9,648 bases of DNA from a virus. Its lineage: Duplodnaviria > Heunggongvirae > Uroviricota > Caudoviricetes. Location: the IMG/VR virus record IMGVR_UViG_2695420718_000006. One strand, 5' to 3'. Below the pieces are notes generated by a model. That model searched no databases. It was not told where the DNA came from and saw nothing but the letters and a program-made list of their open reading frames with translations. Below are positions 1,809 through 6,910 of the stretch, in pieces. A program made the translations under genes and the position numbers. Position 1 is the stretch's first letter. The number at the start of each line of letters is the position of its first letter.

Positions 1809-4800
1809 TCATCCTCTCCGGATAAGGCACGGGCGTAATCTGCCAGTGTTTTCTTGTTGGTTGCTGCACCATCCTCTTCCTGCAGGCTCGCCAGCAGTGC
1901 ACTGAGATCCAGCTGCCAGCGGGAAATACTGATGCGCAGCGCCGCCAGCGCATAAACGAAGCAGTCGAGCGCCTCATTGCGTCGCTTTTTGCTGTCCCAC
2001 AGTATTTTTTTCCTGCCATCCACCCATTTTTCGACCTGCTCTTCAGCAGTCAGCTGCTGCGCTTCGGTCAGATCAAAAATATCCGGGTTATTCGGGAAGT
2101 GAACGGCACCGGGAAGCGGTTCATCCCCTTCCGGCGTCAGTGTGAAGCGGTTATAAATCTGCTCTTTCGCGGTATCCGTACCGATTTCGGTAAGGTAAAC
2201 CCCGTTTTTGTTTCGCTTACGTGGCATGCTGGCCACCGGCTTTCCGTAGACGGATGCCCCTTTAATGGGGATCACCCGGAACAGCCCATGTTTTTTCGAG
2301 CGTTCATACACAATGGTCGGGTCAATCCCGCCAGTATCCCAGCAGATACGGGATATCGACATTTCTGCACCATTCCGGCGGGTATAGGTTTTATTGATGG
2401 CCTCATCCACACGCAGCAGCGTCTGTTCATCGTCGTGGCGGCCCATAATAATCTGCCGGTCAATCAGCCAGCTTTCCTCACCCGGCCCCCATCCCCATAC
2501 GCGCATTTCGTAGCGGTCCAGCTGGGAGTCGATACCGGCAGTCAGGTAAGCCACACGGTCAGGAACGGGCGCTGAATAATGCTCTTTCCGCTCTGCCATC
2601 ACTTCAGCATCCGGACGTTCGCCAATTTTCGCCTCCCACGTCTCACCGAGCGTGGTGTTCACGAAGGTTTTACGTTTTCCCGTATCCCCTTTCGTCTTCA
2701 TCCAGTCTTTGACAATCTGCACCCAGGTGGTGAACGGGCTGTACGCCGTCCAGATGTGAAAGGTCACGCTGTCAGGCGGTTCAATCTCTTCACCGGATGA
2801 CGAAAACCAGAGAATGCCATCACGGGTCCAGATCCCGGTCTTTTCGCAGATATAACGGGCATCAGTGAAGTCCAGCTCCTGCTGGCGGATGACGCAGGCA
2901 TTATGTTCGCAGAGATAAAACACGCTGGAGGGATCATCCGGCGTCCATTTGAGGCCAAACGGCGTCTCTTTATCGCCAAATTTAAGGTACTGCTCCTCCC
3001 CGCAGTGCGGGCAGGCAACATGAAAACGCATAAAATGCGGGGATTCACTGGCTGCACGCTCAATCTGACAGGTGCCTCTCACTTTGGGCGTGGAGCCACG
3101 GATGGACTTTGGCCAGACCGAGCCTTCAATACGCTTATCGCCCAGGAACGTTGGAGAGCCTTCCTGTTCAATATCCTCATCAAAGGCAGCAAGTTCATCA
3201 TAACCCGCCACATCCACTGACTTTTCACGGTAGTTTTTTGCCGCTTTACCGCCCAGGCACCAGAAGCCACGCCCATTGGTGAAACGCTTCATGGTGAGCG
3301 TGTTATCCCGGTGCTTTTTGCCATACCACGGGGCCAGCGCCAGCAGCGACGGAATATCACGAATAGTCGGCTCAACGTGGGTTTTCATAAAGTTCTCGGC
3401 ATCACCATCCGTCGGCAACCAGATAAGGGTGTTGCGCTGCTTATGCTCTATGAAGTAGGCATAAACACCCAGCAGCATTTTGGAATAACCGACACGGGCA
3501 GACTTCACCACATTCACCTCACGGATGTAGTCGCTGCCCATCGCATTCATGATGGCCCGCTGAAAGGGCAGTGTTTCCCAGCGCCCTTCCTGGTATGCGG
3601 ATTCTTTCGGGAGATAGTAAAGGGTATAGGTTTTATTGATGGCCTCATCCACACGCAGCAGCGTCTGTTCATCGTCGTGGCGACCCATAATAATCTGCCG
3701 GTCAATCAGCCAGCTTTCCTCACCCGGCCCCCATCCCCATACGCGCATTTCGTAGCGGTCCAGCTGGGAGTCGATACCGGCAGTCAGGTAAGCCACACGG
3801 TCAGGAACGGGCGCTGAATAATGCTCTTTCCGCTCTGCCATCACTTCAGCATCCGGACGTTCGCCAATTTTCGCCTCCCACGTCTCACCGAGCGTGGTGT
3901 TTACGAAGGTTTTACGTTTTCCCGTATCCCCTTTCGTTTTCATCCAGTCTTTGACAATCTGCACCCAGGTGGTGAACGGGCTGTACGCTGTCCAGATGTG
4001 AAAGGTCACACTGTCAGGTGGCTCAATCTCTTCACCGGATGACGAAAACCAGAGAATGCCATCACGGGTCCAGATCCCGGTCTTTTCGCAGATATAACGG
4101 GCATCAGTAAAGTCCAGCTCCTGCTGGCGGATGACGCAGGCATTATGCTCGCAGAGATAAAACACGCTGGAGGGGTCATCCGGCGTCCATTTGAGGCCAA
4201 ACGGCGTCTCTTTGTCGCCAAATTTAAGATACTGCTCCTCCCCGCAATGCGGGCAGGCAACATGAAAACGCATAAAATGCGGGGATTCACTGGCTGCACG
4301 CTCAATCTGACAGGTGCCTCTCACTTTGGGCGTGGAGCCACGGATGGACTTTGGCCAGACCGAGCCTTCAATACGCTTATCGCCCAGGAACGTTGGAGAG
4401 CCTTCCTGTTCAATATCCTCATCAAAGGCAGCAAGTTCATCATAACCCGCCACATCCACTGACTTTTCACGGTAGTTTTTTGCCGCTTTACCGCCCAGGC
4501 ACCAGAAGCCACGCCCATTGGTGAAACGCTTCATGGTGAGCGTGTTATCCCGGTGCTTTTTGCCATACCACGGGGCCAGCGCCAGCAGCGACGGAATATC
4601 ACGAATAGTCGGCTCAACGTGGGTTTTCATAAAGTTCTCGGCATCACCATCCGTCGGCAACCAGATAAGGGTGTTGCGCTGCTTATGCTCTATGAAGTAG
4701 GCATAAACACCCAGCAGCATTTTGGAATAACCGACACGGGCAGACTTCACCACATTCACCTCACGGATGTAGTCGCTGCCCATCGCATTCATGATGGCCC

Positions 4801-4972
4801 GCTGAAAGGGCAGTGTTTCCCAGCGCCCTTCCTGGTATGCGGATTCTTTCGGGAGATAGTAATTAGCATCCGCCCATTCAACGGCGGTCTGTGGCTCCGG
4901 CCTGAACAGTGAGCGAAGCCCGGCGCGGACAAAATGCCGCAGCCTGTTAACCTGACTGTTCGATATATTCAC
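1805..4972 (-). CDS. A: Terminase large subunit (lambda gpA-like) with an in-frame internal tandem duplication: 1055 aa instead of the native 641 aa
   Basis: N-terminus [39 protein letters not shown] and C-terminus [13 protein letters not shown] match lambda gpA. Residues 1-450 are followed by L and then a restart at native residue 38 ([14 protein letters not shown]...), continuing to the native C-terminus. Duplicated block is 414 codons (1242 bp). Start is embedded in a Nu1 3' fragment, mimicking the native Nu1/A overlap. Confidence 0.8.
2380..4862. repeat. Tandem direct duplication, 2 copies of about 1241 bp (2380-3620 and 3622-4862), internal to terminase A
   Basis: Direct comparison shows offset 1242 bp: 3622 aligns with 2380 and 4862 aligns with 3620. 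Base 3621 (A) matches neither flank. The antisense ORFs 2579-2800 and 3821-4042 are near-identical and 1242 bp apart. Copies differ by scattered transitions. Confidence 0.9.
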
Positions 4973-5135
4973 TCAGCAACCCCGGTATCAGTTCATCCAG
5001 CGCGGCTGCTTTGTTCATGGCTTTGATGATATCCCGTTTCAGGAAATCAACATGTCGGTTTTCCAGTTCCGGAAAACGCCGCTGCACCGACAGGGGGATC
5101 CCGTCGAGAATACTGGCAATTTCACCTGCGATCCG
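4947..5135 (-). pseudogene. Orphan 3' fragment of the terminase small subunit gene Nu1 (last ~62 codons, no native start)
   Basis: Sequence identical to the 3' end of the intact Nu1 at 6365-6553. Translation [63 protein letters not shown] equals the Nu1 C-terminus. The upstream junction at 5135/5137 removes the rest of the gene; the track's 64-aa ORF starts on a junction-spanning GTG. Confidence 0.8.
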
Positions 5136-6390
5136 ACTCACCCGGCCCCCATCCCCATACGCGCATTTCGTAGCGGTCCAGCTGGGAGTCGATACCGGCG
5201 GTCAGGTAAGCCACACGGTCAGGAACGGGCGCTGAATAATGCTCTTTCCGCTCTGCCATCACTTCAGCATCCGGACGTTCGCCAATTTTCGCCTCCCACG
5301 TCTCACCGAGCGTGGTGTTTACGAAGGTTTTACGTTTTCCCGTATCCCCTTTCGTTTTCATCCAGTCTTTGACAATCTGCACCCAGGTGGTGAACGGGCT
5401 GTACGCTGTCCAGATGTGAAAGGTCACACTGTCAGGTGGCTCAATCTCTTCACCGGATGACGAAAACCAGAGAATGCCATCACGGGTCCAGATCCCGGTC
5501 TTTTCGCAGATATAACGGGCATCAGTAAAGTCCAGCTCCTGCTGGCGGATGACGCAGGCATTATGCTCGCAGAGATAAAACACGCTGGAGGGGTCATCCG
5601 GCGTCCATTTGAGGCCAAACGGCGTCTCTTTGTCGCCAAATTTAAGATACTGCTCCTCCCCGCAATGCGGGCAGGCAACATGAAAACGCATAAAATGCGG
5701 GGATTCACTGGCTGCACGCTCAATCTGACAGGTGCCTCTCACTTTGGGCGTGGAGCCACGGATGGACTTTGGCCAGACCGAGCCTTCAATACGTTTGTCG
5801 CCAAGGAACGTCGGAGAGCCTTCCTGTTCAATATCCTCATCAAAGGCAGCAAGTTCATCATAACCCGCCACATCCACTGACTTTTCACGGTAGTTTTTTG
5901 CCGCTTTACCGCCCAGGCACCAGAAGCCACGACCATTGGAAAAACGCTTCATAGTGAGCGTGTTATCCCGGTGCTTTTTGCCATACCACGGAGCCAGCGC
6001 CAGCAGCGACGGAATATCGCGGATGGTCGGCTCAACGTGGGTTTTCATAAAGTTCTCGGCATCACCATCCGTCGGCAACCAGATAAGGGTGTTGCGCTGC
6101 TTATGCTCTATAAAGTAGGCATAAACACCCAGCAGCATTTTGGAATAACCGACACGGGCAGACTTCACCACATTCACCTCACGGATGTAGTCGCTGCCCA
6201 TCGCATTCATGATGGCCCGCTGAAAGGGCAGTGTTTCCCAGCGCCCTTCCTGGTATGCGGATTCTTTCGGGAGATAGTAATTAGCATCCGCCCATTCAAC
6301 GGCGGTCTGTGGCTCCGGCCTGAACAGTGAGCGAAGCCCGGCGCGGACAAAATGCCGCAGCCTGTTAACCTGACTGTTCGATATATTCAC
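5122..6390 (-). pseudogene. Truncated terminase large subunit copy (A residues 1-418 plus 4 junction-derived residues SDRR, then stop)
   Basis: 422-aa ORF identical to the gpA N-terminus through VWGWGPGE, then diverges at the 5136 junction. Start overlaps the end of the intact Nu1 as in lambda. One T-to-S difference at residue 151 versus the other copies. Confidence 0.85.
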
Positions 6391-6910
6391 TCAGCAACCC
6401 CGGTATCAGTTCATCCAGCGCGGCTGCTTTGTTCATGGCTTTGATGATATCCCGTTTCAGGAAATCAACATGTCGGTTTTCCAGTTCCGGAAAACGCCGC
6501 TGCACCGACAGGGGGATCCCGTCGAGAATACTGGCAATTTCACCTGCGATCCGCGACAACACGAAAGTACAGAATGCGGTTTCCACCACTTCAGCGGAGT
6601 CTCTGGCATTCTTCAGTTCCTGTGCGTCGGCCTGCGCACGCGTAAGTCGATGGCGTTCGTACTCAATAGTCCCTGGCTGGAGATCTGCCTCGCTGGCCTG
6701 CCGCAGTTCTTCAACCTCCCGGCGCAGCTTTTCGTTCTCAATTTCAGCATCCCTTTCGGCATACCATTTTATGACGGCGGCAGAGTCATAAAGCACCTCA
6801 TTACCCTTGCCACCGCCTCGCAGAACGGGCATTCCCTGTTCCTGCCAGTTCTGAATGGTACGGATACTCGCACCGAAAATGTCAGCCAGCTGCTTTTTGT
6901 TGACTTCCAT
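6365..6910 (-). CDS. Nu1: Terminase small subunit Nu1, 181 aa
   Basis: Product MEVNKKQLADIFGASIRTIQNWQEQGMPVLRGGGKGNEVLYDSAAVIKWYAERD is recognised as lambda gpNu1 (winged-HTH N-terminus) at the native 181-aa length. It lies immediately downstream of cos, as in lambda. Confidence 0.95.
   Translation of the reverse strand: MEVNKKQLADIFGASIRTIQNWQEQGMPVLRGGGKGNEVLYDSAAVIKWYAERDAEIENEKLRREVEELRQASEADLQPGTIEYERHRLTRAQADAQELKNARDSAEVVETAFCTFVLSRIAGEIASILDGIPLSVQRRFPELENRHVDFLKRDIIKAMNKAAALDELIPGLLSEYIEQSG

Follow-up and report, generated by a model that had tools for sequence, protein, structure and literature searches.

Closest described systems

In phage lambda, the genes Nu1, A, W and B follow one another in that order, and the terminase protein gpA (641 aa) carries GpA_ATPase and GpA_nuclease domains. 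The window, i.e. the whole stretch of 9,648 nucleotides analyzed here, has both the Nu1-A-W-B order and the two domains in common with lambda: its minus strand holds lambda-type portal, W, gpA and Nu1 genes together with lysis genes, and each of its gpA copies is 97-99% identical in DNA to lambda/lambdoid gpA. Unlike lambda gpA, the gene in the window is split into a truncated ORF of 422 aa and a fusion ORF of 1055 aa. Passages of two reports (PMC3945230, PMC2669165) document that recombination among lambdoid phages and prophages is relaxed, and the prophage mosaics of these passages resemble the window in their block-wise exchange, in alleles 1-3% apart and in a junction such as that seen here between structural genes of one type (P) and a Nu1/lysis module of another (Q). 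Natural lambdoid mosaics are nevertheless colinear and made of single-copy genes, which the window is not.

Another counterpart is the heterotype false duplication of eukaryote assemblies, for which gaps between adjacent allelic copies are a hallmark (Ko et al. 2022, Genome Biol 23:205, PMC9516828). There, as in the window, allelic versions of one locus stand side by side as apparent paralogs, with a gap or spacer, allele-specific SNPs, spurious gene gains and broken ORFs; the copies in the window are distinct alleles and a spacer lies between them. Unlike the eukaryote case, the alleles would be paralogous prophage alleles in a bacterial sample and not those of two diploid chromosomes, three copies that end at different points are involved, and one called base makes up the gap. 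Closer in kind are three independent NCBI Escherichia coli draft contigs (BDKC01000093, BDHX01000115, BDKE01000080) with nine tandem partial duplications in the lambda-like region, including Nu1, gpA and portal, and 0-6 SNPs separating the copies. In four of these duplications a single base (N, N, A, C) forms the spacer, and in one it is two bases ('AC'); in L019 the architecture has a literal 'N' spacer. Like the window, these contigs are short, carry head-to-tail copies in the packaging/head region and in some cases end in IS elements, but their units measure 45-369 bp and those of the window, at 1.2-1.4 kb, are several times larger. Japanese E. coli drafts have often been assembled, scaffolded and gap-closed with Platanus (PMC6724679), which for the comparator contigs is only a lead; a literature search found no papers citing the BDHX, BDKC or BDKE accessions.

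Organization of the terminase region

The window can be read as three minus-strand fragments separated by single bases. Fragment F1 (1..3620, allele P) comprises portal B (1605..4), W (1808..1602) and gpA codons 38-641 (3620..1805), all on the minus strand. It is followed by joint 1, a single spacer base 'A' at 3621, and by fragment F2 (3622..5135), a P/Q mosaic that corresponds to native positions N2380-3893 and contains the 3' end of Nu1 and gpA codons 1-450. After joint 2, again a single 'A' (5136), fragment F3 (5137..9584, allele Q) carries gpA codons 1-418, Nu1 (6910..6365, minus strand), the cos region with YlcI/DUF1398 genes on the plus strand, and lysis genes, namely Rz-like (8970..8491, minus), lysozyme (9452..8955, minus) and, at the end of F3, the 3' part only of holin essD (annotation from L001). 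The holin gene is interrupted by the first 64 nt of an IS66-family (ISEc23-like) element (9585..9648, plus strand), where the window ends.

As assembled, the window does not contain an intact gpA ORF of ~641 aa. The repeat offset at joint 1 is 1242, which is in frame, and the probably artificial 1055-aa ORF (1805..4972, minus strand) consists of gpA 1-450, a Leu and gpA 38-641, with two GpA_ATPase and two GpA_nuclease stretches (Pfam). The offset at joint 2, 1418, is out of frame, and the likewise probably artificial 422-aa ORF (5122..6390, minus strand) follows gpA 1-418 until the frameshift at that joint (…GPGESDRR, then stop). The exact products of both ORFs had no match on record in an exact-protein look-up, and a 94-aa peptide across the joint, used as query in a protein search, gave only short half-matches. 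Once 1242 + 1418 = 2660 bp are removed, gpA is again colinear, single-copy and 641 aa long, as in every natural relative; the best matches to the window cover 6924 bp for 9584 query bases.

Differences between the copies and allelic blocks

The partial triplication of gpA is head-to-tail, with novel joints. By self-BLAST, 2380-3620 aligns with 3622-4862 (1241 bp, 13 mismatches, no gaps), 3719-5135 with 5137-6553 (1417 bp, 14 mismatches) and 2477-3620 with 5137-6280 (26 mismatches). Copies 1 and 2 had been predicted to differ at about a dozen clustered sites, all transitions; indeed, all 13 sites are transitions at synonymous third positions within 2441-3005, and no difference occurs over 3006-3620 (615 bp). 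This patch sets copy 1 (P) against copies 2 and 3 (Q; equivalents 3683-4247 and 5200-5665). Copies 2 and 3 differ at a lone site, 5200, then not at all over 5201-5793, then at 13 sites within 5794-6112 (10 transitions, 3 transversions), and not thereafter to 6553. In this second patch copy 3 (Q) stands against copies 1 and 2 (P; equivalents 3134-3452 and 4376-4694). The original prediction had recognized the cluster and its preponderance of transitions, but placed it slightly off, at 5777-6020, and missed site 5200.

Altogether, 26 of the 27 variable sites are synonymous and fall at codon position 3 (binomial p = 7e-12), and the remaining one, in the second patch, is T151S, which had been correctly named as the sole amino-acid change. 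Between copies, dS is 0.05-0.11 and dN/dS 0-0.02, a purifying pattern; differences random with respect to codon position, which would have pointed to sequencing error, were not found. The differences between copies are not sequencing noise, and their patchiness is real. Sequencing error or random divergence was rejected as an explanation on the same count of third positions. DGR-like adenine mutagenesis or another targeted diversification was also rejected, the changes being ordinary P/Q states, mostly C/T and A/G transitions.

Each of the 27 variable sites shows the P or the Q state and none of the copies has a private mutation, which bears out the earlier view that functional alleles had diverged under purifying selection and had been recombined block by block. 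P and Q are natural, intact, single-copy gpA alleles, and every P and Q locus has a 641-aa gpA; P was found in contigs from ENA and NCBI as well as in strain DCE7, and Q in strain AVS0747. F1 differs from ENA scaffolds L012 and L006 by 4 mismatches in 3620 bp and has the P state at 53 of 56 P/Q-informative sites, the exceptions being N259, which is variable inside the P group, N2356 and N2441. Against E. coli AVS0747 and 2EC1, F3 shows 9 mismatches in 4448 bp (99.8% identity), and it has the Q state at 135 of 137 informative sites. F2, with no private sites and a closest natural match of only 99.4%, runs from P (N2441, N2540) to Q (N2660-3005, 12 sites), back to P (N3134-3452, 13 sites) and again to Q (N3621-3864, 20 sites). 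A reading of the copies as three separate natural alleles was rejected, since the best match of copy 2 is at 99.4% and a P/Q mosaic leaves no residual mismatches.

Each of the five clear P/Q switches lies in a stretch of 99 bp or more that has no SNP; of the stretches of this kind in the duplicated zone, about half contain a switch, as would be expected if phase were lost beyond read length. Contiguous donor-specific SNP tracts with switch points fit inter-prophage gene conversion or a homologous mosaic, and an unphased consensus yields the same pattern equally.

Joints and contig end

Neither joint shows microhomology. The 'A' of joint 1 matches neither flank (the native next base is T/C and the native preceding base C) and occupies native position N3621, which is C in P and T in Q; the 'A' of joint 2 also matches neither flank and occupies N3894, which is T in P and C in Q. 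F1 and F2 thus both stop one base before a P/Q C/T polymorphism, for which the chance is ~1e-3 at the local SNP density of 3.1%, and the breakpoints are not independent of allelic polymorphism. At the left ends of F2 and F3 (N2380 and N2477) there is no known polymorphic site. Restriction-site joints were considered and rejected, as none was seen; the GATC near joint 2 is 2 nt away from it.

Searches of 5,426 complete E. coli genomes, GTDB representative genomes, IMG/VR and JGI metagenomes found neither joint, an absence that is weak evidence because the window's own source was not in the collections searched; none among the thousands of natural relatives examined carries either joint. At the other end, identity to Q is lost abruptly at 9584/9585, and the terminal 64 nt match multicopy sites beside IS66 tnpA/tnpB genes in many genomes. 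An end inside a multicopy IS66-family element is typical of short-read contigs.

Origin of the triplication

Judged from the sequence, the triplication is probably a false duplication that arose when two prophage alleles were scaffolded or gap-closed, and not a biological gene amplification. The sample would have held at least two lambda-like prophages with gpA genes 98-99% identical (alleles P and Q), which the assembler could not phase; three overlapping pieces would have been produced, F1 (P), F2 (a P/Q consensus mosaic) and F3 (Q), and scaffolding or gap-closing would have placed them end to end with overlaps unmerged and a one-base gap filled with 'A'. By analogy, we infer that the process behind the 'N'-spaced drafts also made the window contig. 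Three causes had originally been proposed, namely inter-prophage recombination, gene conversion and an assembler joining reads from related prophages; the assembler is favored because the one-base spacers sit on P/Q sites, the contig ends in an IS, the joints are found nowhere else and 'N' spacers occur in other drafts, and recombination or gene conversion is less so. The k-mers of the joints are beyond what a pure de Bruijn assembler can create, so a gap-filling or scaffolding step must be assumed. Plain de Bruijn unitigs were rejected as the source, since the copies share exact stretches of 593-615 bp and the three pieces are therefore not simple unitigs. Both points tell against an assembly artefact, and so do the spacers, called as 'A' and not as 'N', the left ends of F2 and F3, which are not on known polymorphic sites, and the repeat units, several times larger than those of the comparators. 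If the triplication is an artefact, the underlying biology would be ordinary, with intact 641-aa gpA genes in lambdoid prophages.

It is unlikely, though less so than the other alternatives, that the array belongs to a real, defective hybrid prophage. P and Q would have met in one cell and undergone two illegitimate unequal exchanges, each filled by one base, together with several homologous exchanges or gene-conversion tracts in gpA, and P-type head genes would thereby be joined to Q-type Nu1/cos/lysis genes via a partly triplicated gpA. Unequal exchange between two genomes gives tandem allelic copies directly, block-wise P/Q switching is what homeologous recombination yields, the relaxed lambdoid recombination introduced above offers a precedent, joint 1 is in frame and gives the 1055-aa ORF with complete domains, and the joint bases are called. 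Such a history requires a single lineage to have acquired two independent no-homology joints and five or more homologous switches inside ~2 kb, makes the position of both joints on P/Q sites a coincidence (~1e-3), and has to be set against the absence of the joints from all collections searched and the one-base-spacer duplications with a literal N in other drafts. Direct repeats this long (1.2-1.4 kb) and this similar (98-99% identity), moreover, are expected to be unstable in a RecA+ host. The hybrid could also stem from a single replicative template-switching episode, and it is improbable that the array records such an episode, break-induced-replication-like and between two co-resident lambdoid genomes near cos; the strand would hop between P and Q at homologous positions and twice at non-homologous ones, adding one base each time, and would leave a hybrid prophage whose terminase gene is allelic and partly triplicated.

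More doubtful still is a laboratory origin, in which a chimeric DNA molecule arose, for instance by ligation of dA-tailed fragments or by polymerase template switching while a sample of mixed phages or prophages was amplified, and was taken as a contig. That both joints have one 'A', and on the same strand, would fit 3'-A-tailed ligation and PCR or MDA template switching could give the P/Q switches, but three same-orientation fragments of one 1.5-kb region are very unlikely by random ligation, the alignments are free of the indels and errors of a single raw long read (gapopen = 0), and neither the fragment ends just before polymorphic sites nor the contig end 64 nt into an IS is explained. An in-situ tandem triplication followed by divergence through point mutation has next to no likelihood: the head-to-tail arrangement is what it would give, but 26 of the 27 differences are synonymous though two of the three copies are disrupted, and each difference is a pre-existing natural allele state, in blocks, with no private mutations. 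The original prediction had likewise discounted a recent in-situ duplication, rightly so, as every variant pre-exists in natural alleles.

Implications for draft genomes

If the triplication is an assembly artefact, drafts of E. coli with several lambdoid prophages can hold false tandem duplications, and these yield over-long or truncated "terminase" proteins that are already in public protein databases (P0118, P0119, P0121). Were the array real, it would preserve the trace of multi-template switching between co-resident prophages in unusual detail and would bear on the origin of lambdoid mosaics. The next SNP follows 61 and 63 nt after the left ends of F2 and F3, and the overhang into the IS measures 64-65 nt, which hints at a k of ~64; the values are not in exact agreement, so neither an assembler nor a k is claimed. 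For false duplications, a spacer of one base at a polymorphic position would provide a simple diagnostic.

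Organization of the duplicated locus

A lambda-type late region occupies the minus strand of the window, with portal B (1605..4), W (1808..1602), the terminase large subunit gpA, which is partly triplicated, Nu1 (6910..6365), an Rz-like gene (8970..8491), lysozyme (9452..8955) and the 3' part only of the holin gene essD, cut at 9584/9585; the window also includes the cos region and, on the plus strand, the genes YlcI/YnfO and DUF1398. In a BLAST search with the whole window, identity reached 99.2% among the thousands of E. coli prophages matched and was 97% for phage lambda. Because only ~6924 subject bases cover the 9584 matched query bases in all of these relatives, the natural locus is 2660 bp shorter.

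Self-BLAST returned three gapless pairs: 2380-3620 with 3622-4862 (13 mismatches), 3719-5135 with 5137-6553 (14) and 2477-3620 with 5137-6280 (26). The window is therefore made of three overlapping pieces of a single native locus. With a native coordinate (N) identical to the window coordinate as far as 3620, fragment F1 spans window 1-3620 (N1-3620), F2 3622-5135 (N2380-3893) and F3 5137-9648 (N2477-6988); their shared gpA parts are copies 1, 2 and 3. One repeat offset, 1242, keeps the reading frame and the other, 1418, breaks it; the products are a gpA ORF cut short at 422 aa and a 1055-aa fusion (gpA 1-450, Leu, gpA 38-641), and the normal 641-aa gpA is regained once the 2660 surplus bases are taken out. 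Tandem Repeats Finder also reported, within gpA copies 2 and 3 (window 4181-4222 and 5599-5640), a two-copy repeat of 21 bp at 80%, which looks like chance coding sequence.

Differences between copies and their allelic origin

The original prediction, that the copies differ by patchy, mostly synonymous transitions, held with small corrections. Copies 1 and 2 differ in one patch, as had been claimed (13 sites, 2441-3005, all synonymous third-position transitions), and are identical for 615 bp after 3005. Between copies 2 and 3, a single difference at 5200 had been overlooked, 5201-5793 is identical, and the expected cluster is present with its coordinates corrected to 5794-6112 (13 sites; 10 transitions and 3 transversions). 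One of these 13 sites gives rise to the single amino-acid change already noticed, T151S. The proposed purifying selection also agrees with the data, codon position 3 holding 26 of 27 sites (p = 7e-12; dN/dS 0-0.02).

Two natural single-copy alleles, P and Q, were compared with the fragments. Exact-protein look-up with the portal led to allele P contigs in ENA metagenome scaffolds, NCBI GCA_902501575.1 and Logan assemblies; strain DCE7 has allele P too, and every P carrier has a single 641-aa gpA. F1 shows 4-6 mismatches to the P contigs in 3620 bases and has the P state at 53 of 56 informative sites, the exceptions being N2356 and N2441, which are Q-like, and N259, which varies inside the P group. 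E. coli AVS0747 and 2EC1 carry allele Q, likewise single-copy, in their prophage; F3 matches this prophage at 99.8% identity, and of its 137 informative sites 135 are in the Q state. Four alternating runs make up F2: P (N2441, N2540), Q (N2660-3005, 12 sites), P (N3134-3452, 13 sites) and Q (N3621-3864, 20 sites). An apparent P state at N2774, within the first Q run, was rejected as a switch, because the variant is specific to AVS0747 (lambda and EP91A have A). Site-by-site comparison found no F2 site with neither state, and the best match of F2 to any single natural allele is 99.4%; on this sequence comparison, the three copies are thus a mosaic built from two functional alleles, and only two, that already existed. 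In-place divergence of the copies is thereby excluded, and the core of the original prediction, diverged functional alleles arranged in blocks, is borne out.

Joints, switch points and the origin of the triplication

Each joint consists of one surplus base 'A' (joint 1 at 3621, joint 2 at 5136), unlike both the native next base of the left fragment and the native preceding base of the right fragment, and no microhomology was found at either. The spacers fall on native N3621 (P = C, Q = T) and N3894 (P = T, Q = C). With 3.1% of local positions differing between P and Q, both fragments would end directly before a polymorphic site by chance with a probability of ~1e-3, whereas this is expected if extension halted where reads of two alleles conflict. 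Judged from such sequence features, the triplication is quite probably an artefact of assembly, scaffolding or gap-closing in a sample with two lambdoid prophages that are close relatives. P and Q might instead have formed a genuine hybrid prophage through two illegitimate exchanges and several homologous ones, but this is considered unlikely, as the fragment ends would be a coincidence under any biological breakage model we considered; a laboratory chimera appears very improbable. Five clear P/Q switches all lie within SNP-free intervals of at least 99 bp, roughly half of which, in the duplicated zone, contain a switch. The pattern agrees with phase being lost beyond read length, and is only weakly unlikely under uniform crossing-over (p ~0.06, our estimate from interval lengths). 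Three features sit less easily with an artefact: F2 and F3 both have left ends away from known SNPs, the spacers are called bases, not N, and the duplicated units are larger than those of the draft contigs described next.

Both joint sequences were absent from 5,426 complete E. coli genomes, GTDB representative genomes, IMG/VR and JGI metagenomes, and exact-protein look-up gave no record of the three joint-specific ORFs. Homology search with the 1055-aa ORF turned up other gpA proteins of excessive length among NCBI E. coli drafts, namely P0118 (765 aa, contig BDKC01000093), P0119 (731 aa, BDHX01000115) and P0121 (717 aa, BDKE01000080). Nine partial duplications in tandem, 45-369 bp long, lie in the lambda-like region of these contigs, hitting genes that include Nu1, gpA and portal, with copies 0-6 SNPs apart. 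Four of the nine have a one-base spacer and one has a two-base spacer ('AC'); two of the one-base spacers, at 5438 and 9411 of BDHX01000115, are a literal 'N', and the remaining one-base spacers are 'A' or 'C'. Because 'N' cannot be biological, these duplications are overlapping contigs abutted with a sometimes-filled one-base gap, and the window shows the same pattern with larger duplicated units. A gap between adjacent allelic copies is a published hallmark of false heterotype duplications (PMC9516828). Platanus was used to assemble, scaffold and gap-close many Japanese E. coli drafts (PMC6724679), which offers a lead, and only that, to how the comparator accessions or the window may have been assembled.

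Isolated single N's also occur within Nu1 and neighbouring genes of BDHX01000115 and BDKE01000080, and probably mark polymorphic positions between prophage paralogs that were left unresolved. Many database 'terminase gpA' proteins recovered with the 1055-aa ORF fuse gpA to capsid, tail-fibre or collar domains (P0115, P0117, P0132, P0213, P0223, P0226), and one 1030-aa form occurs in 59 contigs, complete genomes among them; some fusions may have arisen by true deletion in defective prophages and others during assembly. In phage Kati (L004, PP925833.1), the annotation splits the terminase large subunit at 2805-4690 into two ORFs, one of 1746 bp and one of 144 bp, pointing to a frameshift or sequencing error in that record.

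Right end of the window

Identity to Q breaks off abruptly at 9584/9585, inside the holin gene, where the left end of a multicopy IS66-family (ISEc23-like) element interrupts essD (9585-9648); the window stops 64 nt in. Ending a few dozen bases into a multicopy IS is typical of short-read contigs. The exact essD/IS66 insertion joint was not found in any complete E. coli genome. In two unrelated genomes (L017, 3500-3515; L016, about 3724-3740), the flank of the IS66-family end partly resembles holin bases 9569-9584 of the window (GGCGTGACT..TCG / TTTATCG); a preferred target site, an IS terminus that extends further, or chance could explain this.
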